From the IMG/VR virus record IMGVR_UViG_3300010355_001052: 64,000 nt of DNA; one strand, 5' to 3'. Of this stretch, positions 931 to 37,486 are shown one piece after another. The stretch is from an uncultured virus (IMG/VR IMGVR_UViG_3300010355_001052) (taxonomy: Duplodnaviria; Heunggongvirae; Uroviricota; Caudoviricetes). The translations under genes were made by a program, and so were the position numbers. Position 1 is the first letter of the stretch, and every line of letters begins with the position of its first letter. The notes beneath the pieces were generated by a model. That model did no database searches. It saw only the letters and a list, made by a program, of their open reading frames with translations, and was not told where the DNA came from.

Positions 931-1576
931 CTTCTTTCCTTTTAATTTAACTGAAGCTCGTGACGGCACACCAGTTAAAAAATGGGTTTATAAAAACAAA
1001 TGTGTAGTTGAAAATACAATTGGAGGATTTAGAACATTCCTTTGTGGATATGTTGTATTTCCTAAAAAAGAAATACCAGCACCTTGGTGGGGGAATTATA
1101 ATGCTGGTGGATTACAGCAATTAGCTATTCATGGTGGTCTAACTTTTTGTGAAATTTATGAAGCAAAAGATCAAGAAAAATACCAAAAAGAATATGAGGT
1201 TGTTAGAGATGCTTTATCTAAAGCAAATCCTTTAGATGCTAAACTTCAGGATTTTCTTAAATTAAGACAACAGTTCCAAGACAATTTATGCTTAACTGAT
1301 GATGGTTATGTAGTATTTGGGTTTGATTGTGGTCATTTTAATGATGACACAAATCCAGATTTAAAAGATCCTAATCATGTCATGATGCTTGTGGAACAAA
1401 TGGAAGAACAGCTAGTTGAATTTGCTAAAGTTTATTATGAATATCTTGGTAGTAGTCAAGCAGAAAGAACTCAGATCATAGAAAAAGTAATTGCAGAAGC
1501 ACCACTTAGAACTGAAATGGGTATAGGTAGAATGCTTGAAATACTAGCTGAAAGACTTAAGTCAAAAGAACCTTAA
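902..1576 (+). CDS. conserved phage hypothetical protein
   Basis: 224 aa; CGYV, HGGLTF and GFDCGH motifs typical of a widespread uncharacterised phage family. Confidence 0.7.
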   Translation: MSSGMETQYNFFPFNLTEARDGTPVKKWVYKNKCVVENTIGGFRTFLCGYVVFPKKEIPAPWWGNYNAGGLQQLAIHGGLTFCEIYEAKDQEKYQKEYEVVRDALSKANPLDAKLQDFLKLRQQFQDNLCLTDDGYVVFGFDCGHFNDDTNPDLKDPNHVMMLVEQMEEQLVEFAKVYYEYLGSSQAERTQIIEKVIAEAPLRTEMGIGRMLEILAERLKSKEP

Positions 1577-1581
1577 TAAAA

Positions 1582-1720
1582 TTGTTAAATACTATAGGGA
1601 ATACAGTACCTATGTAAATTACCTGTATCTACACTGGAACATGAGGGTCATCCTCACTTAGTACCTGAACTAACAGATATTTATGTGACACAGAAACAAT
1701 TGTAGTATTTAACAACACCA
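1582..1720 (+). ncRNA. putative structured RNA, unit 1 of a tandem pair
   Basis: 15-bp closing stem 1582-1596/1701-1715 with one G-U; core TACAGTACC...GACACAGAAAC; followed by ACCA. Confidence 0.55.
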
Positions 1721-1721
1721 T

Positions 1722-1815
1722 TATCAAAATATAGAGGTACAGTACCTAAATTGACACCGGCAATGCGCCTAGTTCATTTTTAGACACAGAAACGACATAT
1801 ATTTTGATATTACCA
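1722..1815 (+). ncRNA. putative structured RNA, unit 2 of a tandem pair
   Basis: 12-bp closing stem TATCAAAATATA/TATATTTTGATA; same core TACAGTACC...GACACAGAAAC; followed by TTACCA. Confidence 0.55.
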
Positions 1816-1819
1816 TTAA

Positions 1820-1989
1820 TGAATATAGGCAGGTCAGCTTTAGAAGCCAGTTAGCCATGCGGCCTAATGTGTGATACATTCGCGGTGCTCACATGGACAC
1901 TAAGCATGCCGGGTATAGTATATTCAAGTATTATACCGACTTAGAGGAACACCTGATTGGGTGCTAAGATCTGAAACAACTCCTTTAAG
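1820..1989 (+). ncRNA. further putative structured RNA(s) in the same non-coding cluster
   Basis: GC-richer non-coding stretch with TGAATATA/TATATTCA, GGCA/TGCC, AATGT/ACATT and CTTAGAGGA/TCCTTTAAG stems. Confidence 0.35.
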
Positions 1990-2024
1990 ACTAGGGGTTA
2001 GTAATAGCACCTAGTCTTATTTTT
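1987..2024 (+). terminator. intrinsic terminator
   Basis: AAGACTAGG/CCTAGTCTT stem followed by a T-run. Confidence 0.65.
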
Positions 2025-2142
2025 ACTATCTTTACCAACTTTAACCAATCACATGAAAAAGTTACTTAAAAAGGTTGTTAGATGTCTACCTACATTAAAA
2101 GACTTCAAGTATATTCCAACAAAACATTAAATCTCATTACAG

Positions 2143-2511
2143 ATGAAAAAATTATTAATTAAATGGTTCGCTCTTGTACCACCAGCGCCTGTCTATAACT
2201 TCAATGTTACAGAAGGTACCAAATGTCATGTAATTGAAGTAGATAAACAATCAACTTCAATTGTAGAAGGTCTAGGTATTACACCTGAAAGAGAAAAAGA
2301 ATTAGCTGATATGGCTATTGAGACATATAAAAATACAAAGAATCTCGTTGAATGTATAGCTGCTGTTTCCAAAAACACTAAACATGCCAATGAATTATTT
2401 TTTGTATCTTATGTATTAAGTGGCTTTCATCAACAAATGCAAAGTCCTGGTGCTATGATAGCTAAAATGATTGAAAAATCTCTCCGCGAAAGAAGAGGCG
2501 GAGAAGAGTAA
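2143..2511 (+). CDS. hypothetical protein
   Basis: 122-aa ORF with ATG start. Confidence 0.65.
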   Translation: MKKLLIKWFALVPPAPVYNFNVTEGTKCHVIEVDKQSTSIVEGLGITPEREKELADMAIETYKNTKNLVECIAAVSKNTKHANELFFVSYVLSGFHQQMQSPGAMIAKMIEKSLRERRGGEE

Positions 2512-2578
2512 AAATACTCTGGGAGTCTAAAGGTGGATCAGTTCTCCCTGACTCTGGTCTACTCTTCCAGATCCTATT

Positions 2579-2607
2579 AAAAAGCAGATTGTAATGATCT
2601 GCTTTTT
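2579..2607 (+). terminator. intrinsic terminator
   Basis: AAAAAGCAGATT/GATCTGCTTTTT hairpin. Confidence 0.65.
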
Positions 2608-2627
2608 GTATTAATACCCGTTACATT

Positions 2628-2819
2628 ATGAAAAAAACAATTCTATTTCTTATTTGCTTCATAGCAACAGTAATAGTAAACCAGATCTACTTTGAATACT
2701 GCGTAAGTAGACCATGTGCTGAATGGATAACAGTAATACTAGGATTAGTATTAGTTGTGTATGACATTGCCATGTTTGTTCTAGCGGTAAAAACCTTAAA
2801 AACAATCCTTAAATTATGA
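2628..2819 (+). CDS. small membrane protein with two TM segments
   Basis: two hydrophobic stretches in 63 aa. Confidence 0.6.
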   Translation: MKKTILFLICFIATVIVNQIYFEYCVSRPCAEWITVILGLVLVVYDIAMFVLAVKTLKTILKL

Positions 2820-3138
2820 TTTCAAGTTTTATTGTCCTTATTGGATTTCTAGTAGCAGTGTCAATGTTGACAGCTCTCTTCAGTTAGTTGAAACTGATAA
2901 ATCTCTCAAGTTCTTTAGTATTGATCTTGAAGTAGACAAGGAGTATGTGATTAAATTCACATCTAAAACCAATGAAACTAAGTACTTATATGTAAGTGCA
3001 GAAGAATACGGTGGTTTTGGAATTGATGTAGATTTTAATAGGACTGGATCTGCCAGATTAACCTATAATAATTATCGTCAAGAATATCAGGTGGTGAGGA
3101 TAAACTCAACAAGCAATCTCTACGCAAATAATGAATAA
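2816..3138 (+). pseudogene. possible frameshifted or deletion-fused gene
   Basis: ATG at 2816 gives a 23-aa hydrophobic peptide ending TAG; another frame is open 2800-3138 without an early ATG. Confidence 0.3.
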
Positions 3139-3147
3139 TTAACAAAT

Positions 3148-3181
3148 AAAGCCTAGGGGAGTAGTCCTCTAGGCTTTCTTT
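3148..3181 (+). terminator. intrinsic terminator
   Basis: AAAGCCTAGGGGA-GTAG-TCCTCTAGGCTTT hairpin plus T-rich tail. Confidence 0.7.
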
Positions 3182-3227
3182 AAATGTACTAAAATAATAA
3201 AATATTCGGATTATCCTAGGAATTTCT

Positions 3228-3235
3228 TACATTTG
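3228..3235 (+). promoter_or_regulatory. Bacteroidota-type -7 promoter element (TAnnTTTG)
   Basis: TACATTTG, 6 nt before the ATG at 3242. Confidence 0.5.
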
Positions 3236-3241
3236 TTGTAA

Positions 3242-4045
3242 ATGATATTAACTGATCAGCAATATAACACTATTGAACAAGACCTAAAATTAGGTATTTT
3301 AAATTTTACTGATATTGCTAAAAAATTAAATATATCAAGACCGACAGTAAGAGCTCATGCTAAAAGAATTGGTTTACATACAGGTAATAAAATAAGACTA
3401 AAATCTTATACCTTAAACGTAAATTATTTTGATAATATTGATACTCAAGAAAAAGCATATATTTTAGGACTTCTATATGCTGATGGTTGTAATACCAGAA
3501 GAGGTTTACAAATTGCATTAGTTGAAGAAGATAAAGAAGTTATTGAATTTGTTAAAGTACAATTAGGAGCTTCAAATAATTTAAAATTTATACCTGCAGC
3601 AAAACCTACTTGGAAAAATAAATGGGAACTTAGTATTAGTTCTATTGAATTAAGTAAAAATTTAAGTAAAGTAGGTTGTATACCTGCTAAATCATCAATA
3701 TTAAAGTTTCCTGATTTTATAAACTCTAACTTAATTCATCATTTTGTAAGAGGTTATTTTGATGGTGATGGTTCAATATGGTTACATAAAGGAGGTTGGC
3801 ATTCTTCATTTACATCAGCAAGTGAAGATTTCATATTATCTCTTCAAGATCTTTTAACAAAACAAGGTATTTATACTAAGCTTTATAAAACAGGAGTTAA
3901 AAAAACTTGTTTTCAAATTTTACTTGGAAGAAAATATGAAATAGAAAAACTTATGCTTTATTTATTTAATGGATCTACATTTTCTATGAAAAGAAAACGT
4001 CTTAAAATGGAAATGTTTTTAACTAATTGTAAATCAAGTAAATAA
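3242..4045 (+). CDS. free-standing LAGLIDADG homing endonuclease with N-terminal HTH
   Basis: two LAGLIDADG motifs (YILGLLYADGC, FVRGYFDGDGS); HTH DIAKKLNISRPTV. Confidence 0.9.
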   Translation: MILTDQQYNTIEQDLKLGILNFTDIAKKLNISRPTVRAHAKRIGLHTGNKIRLKSYTLNVNYFDNIDTQEKAYILGLLYADGCNTRRGLQIALVEEDKEVIEFVKVQLGASNNLKFIPAAKPTWKNKWELSISSIELSKNLSKVGCIPAKSSILKFPDFINSNLIHHFVRGYFDGDGSIWLHKGGWHSSFTSASEDFILSLQDLLTKQGIYTKLYKTGVKKTCFQILLGRKYEIEKLMLYLFNGSTFSMKRKRLKMEMFLTNCKSSK

Positions 4046-12566: not shown

Positions 12567-13730
12567 ATGAACATGAATACAACAAATGAATCTTTATCAC
12601 AGTCAACTATTGATACACCAGTATCTCCATCACCTGCTGGTTCTTCTATTTCCGGTTCTTCTATTTCTGATGCAGTAATTGTTGAGGAACAAGCAAAAGA
12701 AGAAGACCCTAATCTTGGAGAAATGGGTAATGAAAGAAAAGCCACAGAAGGCTATGTTTACATGGATCGCGTTAAGGACATCCTTGATGTTTCTATGAAA
12801 ACAGGAAAAAATGTTATTCTTTACGGTCCAGGTGGATATGGTAAATCAGAATTTACTCTTGATTTCTTGAGAGAAGCTGGTATTGAACCATATGTTATCA
12901 CTATGGGTACTGGTATGACTACAGACCGTATGTTTGGTGGTTTAAATATTCCTACCTTTAATACAACAGGTAAGATTGAGTATCTTATTGAAAACTCATT
13001 CATGCACCATGAATTTGTGATCTTTGAGGAGTTATTTGATGCTCCTGACTTTATCCTTGAGCAATTAAAGGATATCTTAAGCTCAGGTGTATTCAGAAAT
13101 GGTACTCAGATCTTTGAGATCAAAACTAAACTGATCATTTGCTGCACCAATAAAACGCGTGAGGAATTCTCTAAGAATAACTCATTAAAAGCGTTGATGG
13201 AGCGTTTTCCACTTGAAGCAAAAGTAGATTGGAAAGATCATAACAAAATCTCATATGAGAATTTGTTTAAAGTGAAGTTGGGACATGCTGATCCAATGTT
13301 GTCTTATATCCTGGAGCAATATGCTGTAGGTGGTATTAAAATCAGTCCAAGGATTGCTCTTGCTGCTCATGAAGTTCTTGATCAGTGTGGTCCGGAAGCT
13401 TTGATGCATATTGCGGATCTGAACACTAAGCCAGAGATCCTGAAATCTGCAATTGCTAAGTTCAACAGCTTAATTGAAGTTACAAAATTGGCTAATGAAA
13501 TGGCTGAGTATGCAATGAAAATTAACCTGTGTCCACTTGACACAATGGAAAGTGTTAAAGAAGCAAGTGCACTTAACAAAGACTTGTTCAATTGTATCAC
13601 TAAAATGAAAGCAATTAAAGCTGATGATTCAATTGTTGCTACAACAGCTGAAGCTATCAAGACTTATTCTGGTATTTATGAAAATATCAAGAAAAAACTT
13701 GCAATCATTATGACTATTGACAATGAGTAA
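12567..13730 (+). CDS. MoxR/RavA-like AAA+ ATPase
   Basis: GPGGYGKS; Walker B variant IFEELFDAP; sensor CTN; ALMERF arginine finger. Confidence 0.85.
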   Translation: MNMNTTNESLSQSTIDTPVSPSPAGSSISGSSISDAVIVEEQAKEEDPNLGEMGNERKATEGYVYMDRVKDILDVSMKTGKNVILYGPGGYGKSEFTLDFLREAGIEPYVITMGTGMTTDRMFGGLNIPTFNTTGKIEYLIENSFMHHEFVIFEELFDAPDFILEQLKDILSSGVFRNGTQIFEIKTKLIICCTNKTREEFSKNNSLKALMERFPLEAKVDWKDHNKISYENLFKVKLGHADPMLSYILEQYAVGGIKISPRIALAAHEVLDQCGPEALMHIADLNTKPEILKSAIAKFNSLIEVTKLANEMAEYAMKINLCPLDTMESVKEASALNKDLFNCITKMKAIKADDSIVATTAEAIKTYSGIYENIKKKLAIIMTIDNE

Positions 13731-15129
13731 ATATAGCTATGGTCGCGGCGCAGGCTTCAACTATGGTGGTCGTAGTAAATATGATTACGATGATGACTAC
13801 TATGGTGGAGGCTACAAATCTAAATACGGTAATTCGTATTCTAGTGGATGGAGCTGGGGTAATTTTGGTAGCAGTTTCTCTTATGCTGAAGAAGATGATG
13901 ATGATGATCTCTACATCAAAAATCATGAGAGTTATTTTACACCAAAAAACTCTGTAATCTCAGATAAACTTAAACATTCTGAGAATACAAAACACAACCG
14001 CCAGCTCATAAAAGAGATGTCCCGGTATTTTTTCTACAATATGATGGCTGATAAAGAATATTTTGATGAAAAATATGCTGATCACACCAAACTTACTGAA
14101 GATGAAATAGCACAGTTTGAACAGAAAAAATCATTTTATGATGATCTCTGGGATAAATTTGTACCTGGGTTAACACCTCTTGATAAAGCATTGGCAATAT
14201 TTGCCAAGCTTGTTGAGGAAAAGAAAGATCAAACAGGACAAGCAAAAGGTGATGTAGATGAAACTCAATTGGATGTGAATGAAATTCAATTCCATGAAGA
14301 GATCTACAATGATCCTGTATTTAATGAGTTACTTGATTCAAATCATTTCTCTAAGCAACATAAAATGGACATTCTGAACAAGATTAGTCTAATAAAGAAC
14401 CTTGGATCTCAGTTTAAAATTGAGAAAGAAATTGAAGAGAAAATAGTAGCCAATTCTCAGATTATCACTAAGAAAATCATGCGTGATTATTCTCAACTTG
14501 GTAATATTGATCTTTATCAGAAACTAATGCCAACATTTAACTTAAAGCTCCTTACTAAGGATCTTATTGTTAATGTACCGGTAGATAGAACTGAGCACAA
14601 ACAAAAGATTATTATTCTAGTAGATTATAGTGGTTCAATGCATGAAAAAGAGAAGCAAGAATGGGTAGTTGCTCTTATGGTAGACAGATTGAGATATGTT
14701 ATTAAAGAAGAAGCTGAAGTTTTCTTTAGTTATTTCATTAATGATATCTCTCAAATGAAATTTCATCATCTTTATAACAGAAAAACTGTTATGGATTTTT
14801 GGATGCAATTCTCTACTGAACCAAATGGAGGAGATACAAGATTAGGTGTTATGGTTAACCATATCAAAGAATCTATATCTAAAAAACAATTACACAATCT
14901 TAATGTGGATCTTAGTGAAGAGATGCCAGAAATATTAGCTATTAATGATGGTCAGGACAGTGTAAAAACTAATCAGTTTGTTTATAAAACAAATGCAATT
15001 AGTGTTATGGATGGTCCTAATAAAGATCTGAAAAAGCTATGTGTTGCCAATGACGGTAAATATGTTTACGTTAGTGGTAAAGAAGCTAAAACTTGGTCTA
15101 AAGCCGGGGAACAACTTCTGAAAATATAA
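13723..15129 (+). CDS. VWA-domain protein, partner of the upstream AAA+ ATPase
   Basis: MIDAS DYSGSM, GGDT, NDG; G/Y/S-rich N-terminal tail. Confidence 0.85.
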   Translation: MSKYSYGRGAGFNYGGRSKYDYDDDYYGGGYKSKYGNSYSSGWSWGNFGSSFSYAEEDDDDDLYIKNHESYFTPKNSVISDKLKHSENTKHNRQLIKEMSRYFFYNMMADKEYFDEKYADHTKLTEDEIAQFEQKKSFYDDLWDKFVPGLTPLDKALAIFAKLVEEKKDQTGQAKGDVDETQLDVNEIQFHEEIYNDPVFNELLDSNHFSKQHKMDILNKISLIKNLGSQFKIEKEIEEKIVANSQIITKKIMRDYSQLGNIDLYQKLMPTFNLKLLTKDLIVNVPVDRTEHKQKIIILVDYSGSMHEKEKQEWVVALMVDRLRYVIKEEAEVFFSYFINDISQMKFHHLYNRKTVMDFWMQFSTEPNGGDTRLGVMVNHIKESISKKQLHNLNVDLSEEMPEILAINDGQDSVKTNQFVYKTNAISVMDGPNKDLKKLCVANDGKYVYVSGKEAKTWSKAGEQLLKI

Positions 15130-15137
15130 GAATATAT

Positions 15138-15223
15138 CCCTGTACGGTTAAATAATATTTGTGGGTTTATGATATTTCAAATATCTGATAACAATAACAA
15201 GTTGATAATACGACAGGGGCCCA
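15138..15223 (+). ncRNA. putative structured RNA sharing a module with the downstream tRNA-like RNA
   Basis: closing stem CCCTGT-CG/CG-ACAGGG; inner TTAT-GATAT/ATATC-TG-ATAAC; CCA shortly after the stem. Confidence 0.45.
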
Positions 15224-15228
15224 TTGAG

Positions 15229-15262
15229 CAGCTCTCTTAGGAAACTAGGAGAGCTGTTTTTT
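15229..15262 (+). terminator. intrinsic terminator
   Basis: CAGCTCTCTTAG-GAAA-CTAGGAGAGCTG plus T6. Confidence 0.8.
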
Positions 15263-15267
15263 ATTAA

Positions 15268-15374
15268 GGAGGTTGTAGTTCAAAGGTAGAATACTATGCT
15301 TGGGATTATGGTTTTTATAACCTGATAACGAAAAGACAACATAGAGATTAGTGGTTCGAGTCCATGAACCTTCA
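15268..15374 (+). tRNA. tRNA-like RNA (possibly Pro-TGG) with a 41-nt anticodon loop
   Basis: acceptor GGAGGTT/AACCTTC; D arm GTTC-AAAGGTA-GAAT; anticodon stem CTATG/CATAG; T arm GTGG-TTCGAGT-CCAT; loop begins CT-TGG-GA. Confidence 0.6.
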
Positions 15375-15399
15375 CAATTATTAATTAATTTAAAAATGT

Positions 15400-15939
15400 A
15401 TGAATAAATTATTTGTAGGATTAATACTTTTTCTATTTTACTTAGGTGCTCTGATTATGATGAGCTTCCAAAAAGAAGAATCAGTTCCTGTAATAGGTGA
15501 CTGGAAATATTCTTTTATTATTCCAGTAGATACAAGTTATGTTTCTACTACAATGACTTATTACCCAACATTTGATCAGTGTGATTCTACTCCATGGAGT
15601 ACAGCTGATCACTCTAAAATTGACCCGGTAAAACTCCGGAAAAAAGAAATTAAATGGCTAGCATTATCTCGTGATCTTATATGGGATGAAGAAAGACAAA
15701 AACTTTATAAAGATACTACTCATTGGAGGGGTCCTTATCCATTTGGATCAGTTCTTTATCTTAAAAGTTCCAGTAAACCCTGGATAAATGGTCATTGGAC
15801 TGTACATGATTGTAAAGGTCCAAGTTATGAAAACAGTATTGACTTACTTGTGGATCCAAGAAACAACAAACCAAAGTTAGGTATCTGTAGAGACATAATG
15901 GTCATTGGATATCAACTTAGAAAAAAACTAAACTTATGA
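15400..15939 (+). CDS. membrane-anchored 3D/RlpA-like double-psi-barrel protein (putative peptidoglycan lytic enzyme)
   Basis: N-terminal TM; TYY, QCD, STAD, ALSRDL, VHD and IDL pattern. Confidence 0.6.
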   Translation: MNKLFVGLILFLFYLGALIMMSFQKEESVPVIGDWKYSFIIPVDTSYVSTTMTYYPTFDQCDSTPWSTADHSKIDPVKLRKKEIKWLALSRDLIWDEERQKLYKDTTHWRGPYPFGSVLYLKSSSKPWINGHWTVHDCKGPSYENSIDLLVDPRNNKPKLGICRDIMVIGYQLRKKLNL

Positions 15940-16340
15940 AAAGACTATTTTTAGATGATCACAGAGTTCCTCCTGATTGTGCCCAATACATGTACTCAAG
16001 AGGTGTTAATTGTACAGTTTACCATGAAGAATGGGTAATAGTAAGATCATATGGTCAGTTTATTAAGTGGATTGAAGAAAATGGTCTACCTGATCTTATA
16101 GCATTTGATCATGATCTTGCAGATGTTCCTGAACTTAAGGAAACACTTCCTTTAGAGGAGTGGTTTGATCTAGAAAATTCTAGAGAATATACAGGTATGG
16201 ATTGTGCTAGATGGTTAGCTAATTATTGTTCTCAAAAAGGACTAAAATTACCAGAATATTCAGTACATTCAATGAATCCACAAGGTTATCTAGATATCAA
16301 GGATTACTTGAAAAATGTTAAGAAACACCTTAATTTATAA
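15936..16340 (+). CDS. cyclic-phosphate-processing receiver-like domain protein
   Basis: LFLDDHR, FDHDL, TGMDCARWL and HSMNPQG motifs. Confidence 0.75.
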   Translation: MKRLFLDDHRVPPDCAQYMYSRGVNCTVYHEEWVIVRSYGQFIKWIEENGLPDLIAFDHDLADVPELKETLPLEEWFDLENSREYTGMDCARWLANYCSQKGLKLPEYSVHSMNPQGYLDIKDYLKNVKKHLNL

Positions 16341-17151: not shown

Positions 17152-18246
17152 ATGAGTGCAGAAAAAATTAGTCTCTTCTATAAGGAAGGGAGTTCAGATA
17201 AAGTATATAATCTTGAATTAGTTACAACAGGAAAAACTTGGGATGTAAATTATCAATATGGTAGACGAGGTAGTTCATTAACTACAGGTCAGAAAATTAG
17301 TACTACTGATTATTATAAAGCTAAATTAGCGTATGATAAAATAGTAACTGAAAAAATATCTAAAGGGTATCAAGTCTTTACTAATACTTTTTCACCTTAT
17401 ACACCTTATAATTCTGGTGGTGCAATAGCTCCAACTTCAGAAGATACCGGTATCAGACCACAACTTCTAAATGAAATAGAAGAAGAAGATCTTGAGAAAT
17501 ATATCACTGATGATAATTGGTGTGCACAAGAAAAATTTGATGGTAGAAGAAGACTACTGATTAAACAAGGTACTAAAGTAAAAGGTACTAACCGTAAAGG
17601 ATTAGTTGTTGGTATTACATCTAACATAGAAAATGATTTGCTTAAGTTAGATGTACCTTCTATTATTCTTGATGGTGAAGCTTTTGATGACCGCGTTATG
17701 ATATTTGACTCATTAGGTGAGAATTTACCTTATAAAGAAAGATATCAGAAAATGTTGAATTTACTTAATCAATATGAAGAAAAAAGCATTATCCCGGTAT
17801 CAACAGCTTGGACCACTGAAGACAAAAGAGAATTATTAAAATGTCTTAGAAGATGTAATGCAGAAGGTATTGTATTTAAGAATATACATTCTACATACAA
17901 ACCTGGAAGACCTAACTCAGGTGGTGATCAACTTAAATTCAAATTTGTTACTACAGCATCATGTATTGTAGGTAGAATAAATGCCGGTAAAAGATCTGTT
18001 GCATTAACAGTATATGATTCTGAATTTAAATTGGTTGAAATTGGTAATGTAACCATATATCCTAATCAAGATGTTCCCAAATTGGGAGAAATTGTTGAAG
18101 TAAGATATCTTTATTACTTTGATAAAGGTAGTTTATTTCAACCTGTACTACTAGGTACCGGTGATTGCTCAAGGGATGATATTGATCTAAAAGATTGTTT
18201 ATTATCCAAACTAAAATTAAAAAGACAAGAAGTATTAAGTGAGTAA
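17152..18246 (+). CDS. WGR-domain ATP-dependent DNA ligase
   Basis: N-terminal SDKVY...YGRRG...EKISKGY (WGR-like); ligase motifs QEKFDG, LDGE, EGIVFK, KFK. Confidence 0.85.
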   Translation: MSAEKISLFYKEGSSDKVYNLELVTTGKTWDVNYQYGRRGSSLTTGQKISTTDYYKAKLAYDKIVTEKISKGYQVFTNTFSPYTPYNSGGAIAPTSEDTGIRPQLLNEIEEEDLEKYITDDNWCAQEKFDGRRRLLIKQGTKVKGTNRKGLVVGITSNIENDLLKLDVPSIILDGEAFDDRVMIFDSLGENLPYKERYQKMLNLLNQYEEKSIIPVSTAWTTEDKRELLKCLRRCNAEGIVFKNIHSTYKPGRPNSGGDQLKFKFVTTASCIVGRINAGKRSVALTVYDSEFKLVEIGNVTIYPNQDVPKLGEIVEVRYLYYFDKGSLFQPVLLGTGDCSRDDIDLKDCLLSKLKLKRQEVLSE

Positions 18247-23527: not shown

Positions 23528-24953
23528 ATGGAAGAAAACAAGTTAGCAGCAGTAAATGAAGAAGAAAAAATGAGAACTACTAATTTTCTTATGACCTTAA
23601 TTGAGTCAAAGAAATTACCAGCTCATATTAAAAACGTTGAAGAAGCGTTTACTATTGCCCAAATGGGTAAAGAACTAGGCTTTCCTACAATGCAAGCCTT
23701 CCATTACATTATCCCTATCCAGGGAAAACTAAGCCTAAGTGCAAAAGCAGTTGGCGCGTTACTAAGAAAAGGTGGCGTAAAATATAGCACAAGAGAAGAT
23801 GGTGTTTATGTTTATAAAGATGGTTCTACCAGCGATATTCTTAAAGCTGATGAAAAACCAATAGACAGAAGAACAACCATTATTTTTTACAGAGAAAATA
23901 TAGAGGAGATCTGCAGTTTCACATGGAAAGATGCTGAACTACAAGGTCTTACGACAAAAGATAATTGGAAAAGAATGCCTAAATAGCTTGGGCATGTAAA
24001 ACTGGGTGAACTGTCTGGAAGGCTAAGTCAGAAATGATAAGTTAATCAGCAGCCAAACTACTAAAGATCATAAAGTAAGTAGGAGGTTCAACGCATAGAT
24101 GGTGAGTAGATCACACAATAATCCATCCACGAGTGCCCAGTACATAGATTATGGCATTTCAGAAATAAATACTATCTTTGTAAGATGGAAATAGAAATCT
24201 GGAAGCCTTTAAAAGATTATGAAGGATTATATGAAGTAAGTAACATGGGTAGAGTTAGATCATTAATAAAACGTGGTAATGCAAAACAAAAAATCAGAAA
24301 AACTGGTTTTGATATTCGCACAGGTTATATTACGGTTCAACTTACAAAAAACAACAAACCTCTAACTAAAAGAGTACATAGATTTGTTGCTGAAACCTTT
24401 GTACCAAACCCAATGAATAAACCTGTTGTAAACCACATTGATGGTAATAAAAAAAACAATAAAGGTTCTAACTTGGAATGGATGACTTATTCAGAAAATA
24501 CTTTACATTCTTTTAAAAATGGACTTCAAAAAAAGATTTTTGGTGATTATAATTATATCACTAAAATTAAAACACAGGATGTTCTCAAAATAAGAGAGCT
24601 AATTAATTTAGGTAAAACTAATAGGGAGATAGCCAAAATATATGGTGTAAATCCATCTCAGATATCTAGAATTAAAACTGGTAAAAGAAGAAAAGAGCTA
24701 TGTAATGATATATGCTGAACTTATGGGAAACCATAAGAACCGGAGAATAAAAAGTCACCGGGGTAACAAATTGAAGGAAATGCTTTTTGCAAGATGTCTT
24801 GCTAAAGGATCTAATAGGATTGGTCCAGATTTATTATTAGGTTTGTATACTACTGAAGAATTAGCTGATACCTTCATTAAAAATGAAAGTCAGATCAAAA
24901 GACATGAAGATGGTACAATAGCGGAAATAATTTTAGATCAGGAGAATAACTAA
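23528..24953 (+). CDS. RecT/Red-beta-like single-strand annealing protein, spliced (exons 23528-23980 and 24774-24953, 210 aa)
   Basis: splicing restores KDNWKRMP-KEMLFARCLAK...GLYTTEEL in frame. Confidence 0.75.
23981..24773 (+). mobile_element. group I intron (793 nt) carrying an HNH endonuclease
   Basis: P1 ATGCCT/GGGCAT with U-G at the 5' splice site; AATCAGCAGCC; P3 ACTGGGTG/TGCCCAGT; P7 GCATA/TATGC; terminal G at 24773. Confidence 0.85.
24185..24718 (+). CDS. intron-encoded NUMOD4-HNH homing endonuclease
   Basis: EIWKP...YEVSNMGRVRS; VHRFVA...VNHIDGNKKNN...NLEW; C-terminal HTH. Confidence 0.92.
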   Translation: MEIEIWKPLKDYEGLYEVSNMGRVRSLIKRGNAKQKIRKTGFDIRTGYITVQLTKNNKPLTKRVHRFVAETFVPNPMNKPVVNHIDGNKKNNKGSNLEWMTYSENTLHSFKNGLQKKIFGDYNYITKIKTQDVLKIRELINLGKTNREIAKIYGVNPSQISRIKTGKRRKELCNDIC

Positions 24954-25680: not shown

Positions 25681-26670
25681 ATGTTAAGTACAAAATCATT
25701 AATATCAGAATTAAGTGAAATACCAAGAGAATGGGTTTTTGAGTTTTATCTAAAACTAGATGAAAGATTATGTGGCCAAGATGTGAGAATAAAATCCCCA
25801 TTTAACCCATCAGATAAAAACCCATCATTCTATGTTCACTTTTCTAGAAGTTTGAATAAGTATATTTTTAAAGACTTTTCAACTGATAAAAAAGGAGATG
25901 GAATAACCTTAGTACAATCTCTTTTAGATTTAAGTACAAGAGGTGAAGCAGCATACAAAGTAATTTCAGATTATAACCAATTTATCCTTAATAATAATGA
26001 GGATTATAGTCTAAGAGATTTTAAAATTCAACAAAAGTATAAAGTAACTGATTGGAAAGTTGGAAACTGGACTAATGTTGATCAAAAATATTGGACTAAG
26101 TTCCATATAGGTTCTAAACTGTTAGAACAATATAATGTAAAACCACTTGACTCATATAAAATGACCAAGGAAGAAGATGGTAAATTACATGAACTTGAAA
26201 TTAAAGGTAAATACTGTATCTATGGTTATTTTAGATCTGACGGTTCCCTTTATAAAATCTATCAACCTTTAGTTAAAGACAATAAATTTATTAAAGTCAA
26301 AGACTATATCCAAGGTACGGATCAGTTAAATTACGCTTCAGAATATTTAGTAATTCTAAGTTCACTTAAAGATATTTTAGGGTTTAAGAAATTAGGTTAC
26401 ACCGGTATTGAAGCAATTGCTCCAGATAGTGAAAACAATCTTATTCCAAGTAATGTAATGACTTCCTATAAATTAAAATTTAAAGGAATCTGTACTTTAT
26501 TTGATAATGATAAAGCAGGTATTGAAGCAATGCAAAAATATACTGATAAGTATCAAGTTAAAGGTATTGTATTACCTCTATCTAAAGATCTTACTGATTC
26601 CATGAAAGATCATGGTCTTAGTAAAGTAAAAACAGAATTGAATAATTTACTAAAAGAAGCATTAACATGA
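25681..26670 (+). CDS. DNA primase (TOPRIM)
   Basis: SPF...DKNPSF...FKDF N-terminal domain; FDNDKAG and KDLTD. Confidence 0.85.
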   Translation: MLSTKSLISELSEIPREWVFEFYLKLDERLCGQDVRIKSPFNPSDKNPSFYVHFSRSLNKYIFKDFSTDKKGDGITLVQSLLDLSTRGEAAYKVISDYNQFILNNNEDYSLRDFKIQQKYKVTDWKVGNWTNVDQKYWTKFHIGSKLLEQYNVKPLDSYKMTKEEDGKLHELEIKGKYCIYGYFRSDGSLYKIYQPLVKDNKFIKVKDYIQGTDQLNYASEYLVILSSLKDILGFKKLGYTGIEAIAPDSENNLIPSNVMTSYKLKFKGICTLFDNDKAGIEAMQKYTDKYQVKGIVLPLSKDLTDSMKDHGLSKVKTELNNLLKEALT

Positions 26671-27092
26671 GTTGGATTTATAACGGTGTTGTCTTTACAG
26701 ATGAAATGATACCAGATGGTGCAGTAGGATTTATTTATGAAATGTCTACTATACTAAATGGTCAATCATATTCATATGTAGGTAAGAAAAACTTCCATGC
26801 TAGTATCAAGAAGAAGATTGGTAAAAAAGCTATGCCTACTGATAAAAGAATGAAAAAATACACCAGGGTAAGTAAAGCTTCTTATCAAAATTATTACAGT
26901 AGTAATGAAACTCTTAAGAAAGCCCATAAAGATGGTAACTTAATTAAAAGAACAATACTTAAAATATGCTTTAGTAAAACTGAACTTACCTATAACGAGG
27001 TAAAGTATCAGTTTACTTTAGGTGTATTAGAGAATGACCGTTATTTAAATGGTAATATTCTTGGTAGATTTTACAAACAAAATAAAATATGA
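26667..27092 (+). CDS. short GIY-YIG-family nuclease
   Basis: GFIY...YVGKK; YYSS; conserved E and NGNI. Confidence 0.65.
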   Translation: MSWIYNGVVFTDEMIPDGAVGFIYEMSTILNGQSYSYVGKKNFHASIKKKIGKKAMPTDKRMKKYTRVSKASYQNYYSSNETLKKAHKDGNLIKRTILKICFSKTELTYNEVKYQFTLGVLENDRYLNGNILGRFYKQNKI

Positions 27093-28291
27093 GATCAGAA
27101 CAATTAGCAAGAATTAGTAAAGATCTAATGCTCCGGGAACCATTTTATGGACTGTTCCTTATGATGCTGAATAAAGTCTGGAGTAAATCTGTTCCTACTG
27201 CAGGTGTAGGTAAAAATGGTATAAATTATCATCTTTATCTTAATGAACTCTTTTGGGATAGTCTAGTAGATAATACTAGAAGGGGTCTTCTAAAACATGA
27301 ACTCTTACACATAGGTTTTTTTCACATTACAGACTACAAGCATCTTAAAGATCCTCTTCTTAAAAACTTAGCAATGGATCTTGAAGTTAACCAGTATATA
27401 GATCCTGATGATTTACCTCCTAATCCTGTACTACTATCTTCCTATCCAGAATTAAAACTCAATCCTAAAGCAGGAACTCTCTATTATTATGAGAAACTAA
27501 TGCAAGGAGCTAAAGATGGTAGTTGTCCTAATCTTAATGCTACAATTGAAGCTAACGGATCAGGTAAACAGTCCTGTGAGATTGTTGCAGGAAACGGAAC
27601 CGGTACATTAGATATCCCAGATCATAAATCATGGGCTGAGTTTGATTGTCTTGATGAAGCAACACAAAAGCTCATTAAAAAACAAACTGAGTATATTCTT
27701 AAGGAAGTAGCTGAACAAGTTACTAAATCTAGAGGAACTGTTCCTGGAGAATTTAAAGACATCCTTGATGAAATTAATAGAGTTGACCCACCAAAATTTG
27801 ATTGGAGGTCATATCTAAGGAGATTTATAGGAGGATCCACAAAGATCTATACTAAGAAATCCCGGAGAAAGTATAATAAAAGATACTTTGAAAACCCAGG
27901 TTTAAAGATTAAACCTAAACGCCATATTCTAGTAGCTATTGATACATCAGGATCAGTAAGCAAAGAAGAATTAAATGAATTTTTACATGAGATTTATCAC
28001 ATGCAAAAAACCGGTTCTGAAATAACTATTGTTCAATGTGACTCAGCAATAAGTCATATTGGAAAATATAATCATAGGGAAGAATTTCAGATCTATGGTA
28101 GAGGAGGAACTTCATTTGATCCGGTACTAGATTATTACAATGAAAATACTCACAAGTATACATGTCTTATTTATTTAACTGATGGTGAAGCTCCCGCTCC
28201 AGATCCAGCTAAAGGAAGAATGTTATGGGTAATGAGTAGCAAATCAAAATTAAATGAGAACCTAATTGGTCCTCAAATAAAACTTAATTAA
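27089..28291 (+). CDS. metallopeptidase-like plus VWA protein (DUF2201-type)
   Basis: HELLH...NLAMDLEVN; MIDAS DTSGS, GGTSF, LTDG. Confidence 0.85.
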   Translation: MRSEQLARISKDLMLREPFYGLFLMMLNKVWSKSVPTAGVGKNGINYHLYLNELFWDSLVDNTRRGLLKHELLHIGFFHITDYKHLKDPLLKNLAMDLEVNQYIDPDDLPPNPVLLSSYPELKLNPKAGTLYYYEKLMQGAKDGSCPNLNATIEANGSGKQSCEIVAGNGTGTLDIPDHKSWAEFDCLDEATQKLIKKQTEYILKEVAEQVTKSRGTVPGEFKDILDEINRVDPPKFDWRSYLRRFIGGSTKIYTKKSRRKYNKRYFENPGLKIKPKRHILVAIDTSGSVSKEELNEFLHEIYHMQKTGSEITIVQCDSAISHIGKYNHREEFQIYGRGGTSFDPVLDYYNENTHKYTCLIYLTDGEAPAPDPAKGRMLWVMSSKSKLNENLIGPQIKLN

Positions 28292-29575
28292 ATGAGTAAA
28301 AAAATAGAAAATAAGTTAGTAAACCTACACATCGAGGAGTTAAAATCTTTTTTAACTCATATCATAAATAATAACAGATTTCTACAATCTCAAGGTAAAG
28401 TACCGGTTACAGTAAACGTAGAGGGAAATGCAGGTCTTGGTAAAACATCTGCTATTGCACAACTTGCAAATGAATTAGGAATTAACTTTATCCGAGTTAA
28501 CCTGGCAATGATTGAAGAACTAGGTGATCTAGTTGGTTTTCCTGTAAGACAATTTGAGTTGTGTAAACAAGAAACCAAAAACGTGTATACTCCTAAAACA
28601 GTAACTACTGCTGCAGGTCCAAAAACTGTAGATGTTATGGTACCTCAGACTGTAACTGTAGAAGGATCCTGTATGTGGGTTGATGAACATGCTGTAGATG
28701 AATATCTAAAACATGGTTATACATTTACCGGTGAAAAACAGATGACATATTGCCCACCAGAATGGATTGTTGGTCTAGGTGATAAAGGAGGTATTCTTCT
28801 ATTAGATGATTATTCCCGCGCAGACTCAAGATTCATACAAGCATGTATGACATTGATTGAGACACAGAAATATATCAGCTGGTCATTACCACAAGACTGG
28901 CATATTATCCTTACTACAAATCCGGATGATGGTGAGTATCTCGTTACACCAATGGATATTGCACAAAAGACAAGATTTATTTCAGTAAATCTTAAGTTTG
29001 ATGTACAATCCTGGGCAAGATGGGCTGAGTCACAAGGAGTAGATGGAAGATGTATTAACTTCTTGTTGATGCATCCTGAATTAGTCACTCCGGAAACTAA
29101 TCCAAGAAGTATAACAACCTTCTTTAATGCTATTAGTTCAATACCAAGTTTTATTGATGATTTACCACTTATTCAAATGATTGGTGAAGGGTCAGTAGGA
29201 ACTGAGTTTTCTACATTATTTACAGCATTCATTAATCATAAGTTAGATAGATTGATCACACCAAAAGATCTTTTACTACATGATAATGAAGCTCATGTAA
29301 TGGGTGAATTAGCTGGGTGTATTGGAAGCGGACCAAGTTACCGCGCTGATATAGCAAGTACACTTGTAACTAGGTTAATAAATTTTGCAGTTAAATATGC
29401 AGAAGAACATACTATACCGCAAAAAACAATTGATAGATTAATCAAAATTTCTACTTCTGAAACTTTGACTTATGATCTTAAGTATCATCTTGTAAAGAAG
29501 ATCCTTAATGGTAATAAACAAAAGTTCCAGGGAATTATGATGAATAAAGATGTTGTTGTAATGGCTATGAAATAA
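28292..29575 (+). CDS. MoxR-like AAA+ ATPase
   Basis: GNAGLGKT, LLDDYSRA, TTNP, AQKTRF and NPRS motifs. Confidence 0.85.
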   Translation: MSKKIENKLVNLHIEELKSFLTHIINNNRFLQSQGKVPVTVNVEGNAGLGKTSAIAQLANELGINFIRVNLAMIEELGDLVGFPVRQFELCKQETKNVYTPKTVTTAAGPKTVDVMVPQTVTVEGSCMWVDEHAVDEYLKHGYTFTGEKQMTYCPPEWIVGLGDKGGILLLDDYSRADSRFIQACMTLIETQKYISWSLPQDWHIILTTNPDDGEYLVTPMDIAQKTRFISVNLKFDVQSWARWAESQGVDGRCINFLLMHPELVTPETNPRSITTFFNAISSIPSFIDDLPLIQMIGEGSVGTEFSTLFTAFINHKLDRLITPKDLLLHDNEAHVMGELAGCIGSGPSYRADIASTLVTRLINFAVKYAEEHTIPQKTIDRLIKISTSETLTYDLKYHLVKKILNGNKQKFQGIMMNKDVVVMAMK

Positions 29576-36416: not shown

Positions 36417-36796
36417 AGAAACAACTTAATGCAGTAAAGGAATTCCATGAAAAGTTTAAACAAACTAATGGAGAACAACCTCAATTACTTACTGAAGATG
36501 ATTATATCTTAAGATATAAGTTAATGAATGAGGAAAATCTTGAGTATTTTGAAGCATGTGAAAAAAAAGATCTTGTTGAAATTGCTGACGCTCTAGGTGA
36601 CCAATTATATATTCTATGTGGTACCATTTTAAAACATGGTTTACAACATAAAATAGAAGAAGTATTTGATGAAATTCAAAGATCAAATATGAGTAAACTG
36701 GGAGAAGATGGAGAACCAATTATTAGACCTGATGGTAAAATTATGAAAAGTAAGTTATATGAAAAACCTAACATAAGTGGGATTTTAGGTCTTTAA
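36413..36796 (+). CDS. MazG-like / PRA-PH-family NTP pyrophosphohydrolase
   Basis: EENLEY...EIADALGDQLY...SNMSK...DGKIMK. Confidence 0.85.
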   Translation: MKKQLNAVKEFHEKFKQTNGEQPQLLTEDDYILRYKLMNEENLEYFEACEKKDLVEIADALGDQLYILCGTILKHGLQHKIEEVFDEIQRSNMSKLGEDGEPIIRPDGKIMKSKLYEKPNISGILGL

Positions 36797-37486
36797 TAAT
36801 ATCCATCCTTTACATTTACCTTTTGATATTAAATTTGAAGAATGTAGATTATTATTTCTACAAAATTCATTAAGATTATTAATAGTAATCTGTTTACCTT
36901 CTGGAGATACAAGAATCCAGTTCTTAGTATGAATAGATTTTTGTATATGATCTTGTAAGAGTTCTGGATTACATAACTTTTTTTGCCAGGTTAGTTTATT
37001 AGTTAATGAACTTTTTTCTTTTGTAATGAGAGAAGTAAATTTTCCGTAGTTCCAATGACCCTTACCAGATCTTTTAAGAGACTGTTGTTTTTTTAATTCA
37101 GAAGTTCTCTTTTTACCTAAATTAGCTAAAGAAATTTTATCTTTTGTAATTTGAGATAATTTAACACCTATTCTTGGATGAATAGAGTATCTAATTGCTT
37201 TAGAAATCACTCTATTATTCCATATTTTAGGTTTATCTAAAACTTTAAGTCTAGTTAATACTTTAATCTCCCACATAATAGCATCTTCTTTATTAGAGAA
37301 TTCTTTTCTTACTTGGTAATCAAAAGCTTTTTTACCATATTTTAATATGAGTTCTTTAATAATATTACTTGATGTAAAATATTTAATCCAAAGATCATCA
37401 TTAGGAGAGACTTTATTACCCCAACGTACACCATAATAATGAGTATTATTAATTTTACATTTTATAAGATAAGTGTATGCATTCAT
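36785..37486 (-). CDS. free-standing GIY-YIG homing endonuclease with NUMOD3-like repeats
   Basis: YTYLI...YYGVR...YFTSS; basic repeats TKDKISLAN and HWNYGK; TATTTTTG element at 37491-37498 (- strand). Confidence 0.85.
   Translation of the reverse strand: MNAYTYLIKCKINNTHYYGVRWGNKVSPNDDLWIKYFTSSNIIKELILKYGKKAFDYQVRKEFSNKEDAIMWEIKVLTRLKVLDKPKIWNNRVISKAIRYSIHPRIGVKLSQITKDKISLANLGKKRTSELKKQQSLKRSGKGHWNYGKFTSLITKEKSSLTNKLTWQKKLCNPELLQDHIQKSIHTKNWILVSPEGKQITINNLNEFCRNNNLHSSNLISKGKCKGWILLKT

Follow-up and report, generated by a model that had tools for sequence, protein, structure and literature searches.

A bulged hairpin is carried by both a tRNA-shaped gene and an adjacent rod-like RNA in an uncultured phage

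Introduction

Why would one bulged hairpin stand twice in a single intergenic gap of a phage genome, once within the anticodon loop of a tRNA-shaped gene and once at the tip of a rod-like RNA beside it? Phage tRNA look-alikes and phage tRNAs with unexplained inserts are common and have no assigned job, and the same insert on a second, non-tRNA carrier provides a clean handle on this class. The locus lies in a 64,000-nt stretch of an uncultured member of the Caudoviricetes (IMG/VR IMGVR_UViG_3300010355_001052), the whole of which is referred to here as the window, and sequencing runs containing it come from wastewater and activated sludge, with no RNA run among those listed. A first-pass annotation had read the two hairpins as one functional RNA element presented on two scaffolds, and had taken them to suggest a modular phage small-RNA system. 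We report that the hairpin pair is evidently real and seen in this phage only, and weigh what it may be for, in a case that rests on one phage lineage and two copies. A literature search returned no description of an insert common to a phage tRNA and an adjacent non-tRNA RNA.

Results

The intergenic gap and its neighbourhood

The hairpins lie in a 270-nt gap (15130-15399) between the stop codon of the gene at 13717-15129 and an ATG at 15400. Three plus-strand features occupy it, a rod-like hairpin RNA, a terminator-like hairpin and a tRNA-shaped gene (Table 1), with the terminator-like hairpin separating the other two. The rod starts 8 nt past the stop codon of the upstream vWA gene, and the tRNA-shaped gene starts four bases past the T run of the terminator and ends 25 nt 5' of the ATG. 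A sigma-70 promoter scan returned shuffle-level matches only, and no Bacteroidota-type -7 box was found by eye.

Upstream stands a gene pair encoding a MoxR-type AAA ATPase and a protein with helical and vWA parts. The alignment-based AF2 model of the latter had a pLDDT of 75.8 (31.9 for a single-sequence fold), and all 50 Foldseek matches listed for this model were vWA domains, including NorD with NorQ, with ~180 residues aligned. Pfam gave only a weak VWA_CoxE match to this protein, and comparison with PDB sequences gave none. Downstream, genes for a cREC_REC protein and a WGR-containing ATP-dependent ligase lie 0.6-2.9 kb from the gap RNAs on the same strand, and passages of one published account tie cREC to RNA ligases and RNA repair in phages (PMC7824862). 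The rest of the window is a replication region, in which four homing-endonuclease genes accompany a family B-type DNA polymerase. A second chaperone-like pair, a DUF2201 metallopeptidase and vWA-like protein adjoining an AAA ATPase, was observed at 27089-29575. GenBank phages gave no match by blastn or tblastn, nor did a protein scan of metagenomes. We do not call the phage crAss-like, because a PHROGs search of its giant ORFs returned no family able to place it.

Table 1. Positions of the gap RNAs and neighbouring genes in the window, with tmRNA-bearing loci of related phages
Feature	Position	Strand	Basis or remark
MoxR-type AAA ATPase	12567-13730	+	Upstream gene pair; Pfam PF20030, 3.4e-15 in pair region
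Helical and vWA protein, 470 aa	13717-15129	+	AF2 model, Foldseek
Rod-like hairpin RNA (copy-1 RNA)	15137-15219	+	Sequence, MFE fold
34-nt element copy 1, GGGTTTATG...CTGATAACAATA	15163-15196	+	Rod tip; junctions between T and GGG and before ACAA
CCCATT tail	15220-15225	+	Directly 3' of rod closing stem (sequence)
Intrinsic-terminator-like hairpin	15226-15265	+	15 pairs, 6 G-C, loop 4, plus T run
tRNA-shaped gene	15268-15375	+	Rfam RF00005, ARAGORN with introns
34-nt element copy 2, GGGATTATG...CTGATAACGAAAAG	15302-15335	+	Within anticodon loop 15299-15339
ORF179	15400-15939	+	No family (Pfam, PHROGs)
cREC_REC protein	15936-16340	+	Pfam
Two ORFs without family	Between 16340 and 17152	+	Pfam, PHROGs
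WGR and ATP-dependent ligase	17152-18246	+	Pfam
Free-standing homing-endonuclease genes	3242-4045, 24185-24718, 26667-27092, 36785-37486		LAGLIDADG, HNH with NUMOD4, two SegE-like GIY-YIG
tmRNA-bearing loci of related phages	L013, L022-L024, L026, L033-L035, L038-L040, L043, L044, L046, L049, L050		ARAGORN

Two RNA frames carrying the hairpin

The tRNA-shaped gene was recognized by Rfam RF00005 on 15269-15374 (30.9 bits against a gathering score of 29; model positions 1-71 of 71), with 37 nt left unaligned in the anticodon loop. Its arms comprise an acceptor stem (GGAGGTT/AACCTTC), a D arm, an anticodon stem (CTATG/CATAG, 15294-15298 with 15340-15344) and a T arm (AGTGG-TTCGAGT-CCATG) with one A.G mismatch, and CCA is not encoded. 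The anticodon loop, however, spans 41 nt rather than the usual 7 of decoding size. With default settings ARAGORN called no gene in the window, and with introns allowed it called 15268-15375 with a 34-nt intron. The gene as transcribed is thus predicted to be incapable of decoding; like T5 RNA1, it appears to retain a tRNA body and to have lost anticodon function.

Copy 2 (15300-15339) reads TTGGGA, TTAT, GGTT, tttat, AACC, TG, ATAA, C, GAAAAG, ACAA in succession, and subtracting its 34-nt element leaves the loop CTTACAA, the usual shape for Val(UAC) (anticodon TAC). This restoration is less telling than it seems, because all eight in-silico trimmings to a 7-nt loop gave a 74-nt tRNA by default ARAGORN, with an identity that varied with the cut point (Val with UAC or GAC, Ala UGC or Pro UGG).

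The rod RNA is closed by CCCTGT(A)CG (15138-15146), pairing with CGACAGGG (15211-15218) around a bulged A15144; the closing stem itself had been described in the first-pass annotation. An internal loop follows and then an inner helix (ATTTGT/ACAAGT), and the fold of 15137-15225 reaches -19 kcal/mol (MFE, z -1.32). Copy 1 (15159-15200) runs TTGTGGGT, TTAT, GATAT, ttcaa, ATATC, TG, ATAA, C, AATA, ACAA, and the letters and coordinates earlier given for both copies proved correct throughout. Subtracting the element from the rod leaves the flanks TTGT and ACAA, joined as the perfect palindrome TTGTACAA.

The CCCATT tail of the rod may represent an NCCA-like 3' end. Its CCATT had been noted as an echo of distant units at 1582-1815, and ACCATT is indeed present 3' of their closing stems; the echo is a 5-mer only, and two of the three cases are paralogues. 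These units belong to two related stem-closed RNAs at 1578-1822, with closing stems of 16 and 12 pairs and a common GACACAGAAAC, each followed by (C)ACCATTA (fold z -1.69 and -3.53; no Rfam family). A further structured and G+C-richer stretch at 1818-2050 (-61.8 kcal/mol, z -2.16, no Rfam match) lies in a 566-nt ORF-free gap upstream of the LAGLIDADG endonuclease gene at 3242-4045. Rfam searches of window positions 1500-3300 gave no credible match.

Comparison of the two copies

Both elements are 34 nt long and have the same junctions, between T and GGG on the 5' side and ahead of ACAA on the 3' side, and their starts are 139 nt apart. The copies align over 47 nt (15157-15203) and 45 nt (15298-15342), with 31 of 49 columns invariant. 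Identical in both are the blocks TGGG, TTATG and CTGATAAC; at the RNA level, UGGG, UUAUG and CUGAUAAC stand around a helix of different sequence that still pairs, and divergence falls in the apical loop and the 3' internal loop. The upper stem has six pairs in copy 1 and four in copy 2, and two of the four common pairs are changed on both sides with pairing kept (A-U to G-C and A-U to U-A), in agreement with the earlier remark that the upper stems differ in sequence and both pair. Pairing was complete across all 18 cells, against 28-69% with partners slid. The level of covariation, computed from two sequences only, was reached by 108 of 500 shuffles and is not significant.

Aligned locally with each other, the two halves of the gap scored 26, against 15.5 +/- 2.4 for shuffled sequence (9 of 2000 shuffles reached 26). 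Used as a primary-sequence query, copy 2 gave copy 1 a score of 24 and unrelated window sites a score of 23. The post-hoc pattern TTATN{8,20}CTGATAAC matched twice in 64 kb against 0.25 expected, and 5 of 100 shuffles gave at least two matches. The hairpin does not seem to be a by-product of this sequence motif, since an upper stem of at least four pairs was formed in none of 279 other matches (117 sampled from viral contigs, 60 from genomes and 102 non-self matches from metagenomes).

Fold z-scores ranged from -1.0 to -1.9, and the minus strand folded roughly equally well. RNAalifold favoured a different register for the lower helix, and the TG bulge is therefore one of two possible drawings: the letters of the TTAT/ATAA stem and of the bulge are kept in both copies as first described, but the register of the bulge is ambiguous. 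Ahead of TGGG, 7 of 11 positions are identical between the copies, a 5' flank similarity that may fit segmental duplication better than a discrete module.

Taken together, the copies are evidently true paralogues that occupy different RNA frames, one a tRNA body and the other a rod hairpin. To that extent the proposal of one element on two scaffolds stands, but the functional role attached to it was not borne out. A local duplication or a small insertion accounts equally for the observed facts.

Search for further copies

A covariance model of the hairpin (R1), which scored 62.3 bits on copy 1, a value high by construction, was applied to the window together with 44 related phage loci (45 sources, 367 kb) and recovered the two window copies only, the next match reaching 18.4 bits (E 0.23). 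G001, the nearest record, matches the region at 100% identity and has these two copies only. Among 151 Bacteroidota genomes, R1 matched four times, each as a singleton and no more often than chance allows. When IMG/VR, 185,579 species genomes and JGI metagenomes were scanned for the exact pattern, chance matches and L329 were returned, the latter being the same phage (100% identity over 778 nt), and patterns for an uninterrupted tRNA and for an empty rod site had no match each in viral contigs. The covariance-model search, set beforehand as the refutation test, thus yielded no further instance in any source searched, and with neither a third instance nor covariation from other genomes the suggested small-RNA system was not substantiated.

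Contigs from four other wastewater or sludge runs (X6, X9, X12 and X14) are identical across the portions of 15130-15400 that they cover, none covering all of it, and their sole differences are 15022 A>G and 15109 G>A. These population data are uninformative because they show no variation in the gap. The three nearest examined relatives (vWA protein 53-59% identical) have no gap at this site. Homologues of the vWA protein with 61-73% identity (P0002-P0012; Logan, ENA and NCBI assemblies) are at the right distance for a real covariation test.

tRNA-like and tmRNA genes in related phages

The scan for tmRNA genes covered 45 loci (L001, L002 and L009-L051). ARAGORN called them in 16 of the 45 (Rfam 50-93 bits), close to the MoxR-vWA pair and with tag peptides ending in AA; the window has none. 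Flanking them stand tRNA-like genes, of acceptor type GATTGAG or AGTCAGG; the tRNA body in the window belongs by sequence to neither type. When 18 such elements of the related loci were aligned, the acceptor stem and the T stem paired in 17-18 of the 18 rows, some pairs being changed on both sides, and the D arm was conserved. The stretch between D and T arms, by contrast, ranged from ~20 to ~95 nt or more and was unalignable; total lengths were 66-186 nt (11 of 18 above 95 nt).

A near-identical D arm and short middle is found on different acceptors, AGTCAGG and GATTGAG, in L033:4305-4373 compared with L039:5428-5496 and L041:5989-6057, with five of seven acceptor pairs changed on both sides; the short middle has a 6-nt 'anticodon' loop. 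tRNA-shaped frames with free or swappable middles therefore recur in this phage group, and the modularity first suggested from the window holds in this respect, in that frames with variable middles are repeated in related phages. Among other relatives the RNAs stand variously upstream or downstream, and none of the 26 ORFs downstream of relatives' tRNA-like genes matched cREC_REC.

Several further features were observed in these loci. An extra D-loop insert accompanies the long middle in tRNA-like genes at L013:5633-5818 (186 nt) and L021:866-992 (127 nt). A 229-aa ORF with a class II aminoacyl-tRNA-synthetase core (L037:5709-6398; tRNA-synt_His, 8.2e-19) lies 1.1 kb downstream of a 109-nt tRNA-like gene and may encode a dedicated charging enzyme. 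A 66-nt tRNA at L020:815-880 (the same in L030; Rfam 42.5 bits) has the anticodon loop CTGATAA, the heptamer conserved in both window copies, possibly by coincidence. An Rfam DUF805b motif (36.7 bits against a cut-off of 35.6) lies directly 3' of the vWA gene at L038:4496-4528.

Discussion

We tentatively favour, as a possible rather than a probable account, a lineage-specific hairpin module displayed on two carriers processed by tRNA enzymes, its ligand unspecified. The first carrier would be the rod hairpin at the 3' end of the MoxR-vWA transcript, in which the closing stem is followed by the NCCA-like CCCA, and the second a tRNA body whose anticodon loop would have been replaced by the module. 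Acceptor-like ends could draw in the tRNA enzymes of the host (RNase P, 3' trimming and CCA addition), whose processing would yield stable, defined RNAs, and the conserved internal loop and bulge might offer a contact surface for a protein or RNA partner. The tRNA body may also signal where the transcript is processed, between the terminator hairpin and the gene that follows. We favour this account because the compensatory pairs and intact blocks lean toward a working hairpin, because the tRNA body passes the Rfam cut-off despite its insert, because length and junctions are the same in both copies, and because related phages repeat tRNA-shaped frames with variable middles. It is weakened because no third copy or module homologue was found, because the nearest examined relatives (53-59%) have no gap, and because two-row covariation was not significant and fold z-scores were unremarkable. 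The working-hairpin and passenger stories fit the facts about equally.

In the passenger story, possible but doubtful in its turn, the hairpin has no function of its own and arose as a 34-nt self-folding insertion or by segmental duplication of an interrupted anticodon arm, landing at the tips of two stem-loops where it would be tolerated because it folds on itself. The tRNA would then be a disabled tRNA-Val(UAC) gene or would work through its top half only, for example by marking where processing occurs between ORF179 and the terminator hairpin. Exact excision giving the canonical CTTACAA loop and the TTGTACAA palindrome speaks for such an origin, although other cut points (Pro UGG, Ala UGC, Val GAC) are equally plausible and the excision is not unique. 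The equal length and junctions fit as well, as do the restriction to two copies 139 nt apart with none elsewhere and the 5' flank similarity (7 of 11 positions). Relatives' middles vary freely while acceptor and T arms are kept, as if only the top half were selected, and the placement of the tRNA, 4 nt past the terminator T run and 25 nt ahead of the next start codon, suits a processing mark. Set against this, two both-sided changes keep the upper stem paired, and divergence in the loop and the 3' internal loop left TGGG, TTATG and CTGATAAC untouched. A mobile element would also be expected to leave more copies and target duplications, but neither MITE-like feature was found: there were no dispersed copies in the window, G001, the 44 loci or the pattern scans, and no flanking direct repeat.

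An unlikely alternative is a true intervening sequence, with 34 nt excised from both RNAs between U and GGG and ahead of ACAA by a protein endonuclease and the ends rejoined. The product would be a working tRNA-Val(UAC), with cREC and the WGR-ligase healing and sealing the ends. A bulge-helix-bulge (BHB) requires, at the exon-intron borders, a 4-bp helix flanked by two 3-nt bulges, one on each strand, and the catalytic core of a group I intron takes ~200 nt or more. Inspection shows no BHB here: the 4-bp helix TTAT/ATAA has a 2-nt bulge on its 3' strand, the wrong one, at its upper end, and a 4 x 8 nt internal loop below. The element, at 34 nt, is far below group I size, with no Rfam intron match at E up to 10. 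The same junctions and length in both RNAs, and the canonical loop left by removal, do favour excision, as do the nearby same-strand cREC_REC and ATP-dependent ligase genes, given the phage cREC-ligase link drawn in passages of PMC7824862, and the unexplained tRNA introns of Lak phages offer a precedent as far as they are described in sections of PMC6784885. Against these points, a Pfam scan of 48 window ORFs found no splicing-endonuclease family, relatives do not keep cREC next to their tRNA-like genes (0 of 26 downstream ORFs), and there is no evident reason for splicing the rod RNA.

Improbable, too, is a broader form of the cut-and-rejoin idea, in which the 34-nt element is a protein-dependent intervening sequence or the recognition cassette of a phage system with cREC and the WGR-ligase. 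If true, a gene otherwise silent would yield tRNA-Val(UAC) during infection. This would be the first case in bacteriophages of tRNA splicing driven by enzymes, and the arrangement could protect the tRNA against host anticodon nucleases for as long as it is not needed.

Bacterial YrlA Y RNAs mimic tRNA, and the two RNAs could be read as a Y-RNA-like pair partnering the upstream vWA protein as a Ro60 analogue with a MoxR ATPase, the module being the binding helix. We consider this very unlikely. The RNAs do lie directly downstream of the vWA gene, whose product weakly matches a PHROG 'RNA-binding protein' family (phrog_850, 1.5e-4, vWA part only), but Pfam detected no TROVE domain and Ro60 was absent from the 50 Foldseek matches listed, which were vWA domains aligned over ~180 residues. 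No Rfam Y RNA matched within 14900-15600 at E up to 10, the nearest examined relatives of the gene pair have no RNA gap, and RNA positions vary in others. This Ro/Y-RNA link, initially preferred, was dropped, as the vWA protein is not Ro60/TROVE.

Hardly credible is an RNA anti-CRISPR, in which the module would mimic a host CRISPR repeat of a class found in Bacteroidota (GTTG...ACAAC) in the form of two solitary units. Solitary repeats of this sort, Racrs, have been described in phages for every CRISPR type other than VI (PMC10651486), and the module ends, (T)TTGTGGG...ACAAG and CTTGGGA...ACAAC, are similar to this repeat class, which was seen in 3 of 401 genomes. On the other side, R1 scored at most 9.9 bits (E 1.1) on three real arrays of the class, no array-like match occurred in 151 Bacteroidota genomes, exact-pattern matches in 185,579 species genomes were all singletons without the hairpin, and the module measures 40-42 nt against repeats of 36 nt.

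Several known motifs were set aside by eye, with no Rfam support: a K-turn or C/D box (AUGAU in copy 1 only), a hammerhead core (stem II absent), and preQ1-I and a DnaA box. A small ORF from the common AUG was also dropped, being 5 aa in one case and 23 aa in the other and not conserved.

Returning to the displayed module, if the hairpin is the working part then both RNAs should bind the same partner, and if it is a passenger then only the carriers matter. Either outcome would help bring order to a numerous group of phage small RNAs that has hardly been studied.

Comparison with known systems

The YrlA/Ro60 system resembles the locus in combining a tRNA-mimicking module and a bulged helix beside a gene for a vWA-containing protein. 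The bulged helix of YrlA is protein-binding and that of the window only a putative counterpart, and the locus differs in its normal tRNA topology and in having neither a TROVE protein nor an Rfam match. Archaeal and eukaryal BHB introns are likewise short anticodon-loop inserts whose removal restores a 7-nt loop; the phage element, unlike them, occurs in a bacterial virus and has no BHB geometry, and no splicing-endonuclease gene was found in 48 window ORFs.

Phage T5 provides a closer setting. Its record (AY543070) annotates RNA1 as a 'tRNA-like stable RNA with unknown functions' beside RNAI and RNAIII, so that here too a tRNA-like, non-decoding RNA stands beside small RNAs, in a phage tRNA/early region with homing endonucleases close by. 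Unlike the window pair, the three T5 RNAs have no common repeat of at least 12 nt, and they are known to accumulate, whereas the window RNAs are predicted ones. The architecture of the second carrier recalls the engineered tRNA scaffold for RNA expression reportedly devised by Ponchon and Dardel, in which a foreign hairpin is placed in the anticodon arm and the whole is processed and stabilised by tRNA enzymes; that scaffold is man-made, whereas here processing and stability are inferred.

The nearest parallel in a phage tRNA gene itself is with the Lak megaphages, whose tRNAs carry 'enigmatic introns' in the sections of the published description that bear on them (Devoto et al. 2019, PMC6784885). 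In both cases an oversized phage tRNA gene is found only when introns are allowed and has an insert in the anticodon region with no known splicing route. As far as those sections go, Lak inserts are reported in tRNAs only, one of them possibly encoding a tRNA, and the comparison is one of descriptions. In the phage studied here, which differs in group and host, the same 34-nt insert is present also in an adjacent non-tRNA hairpin.
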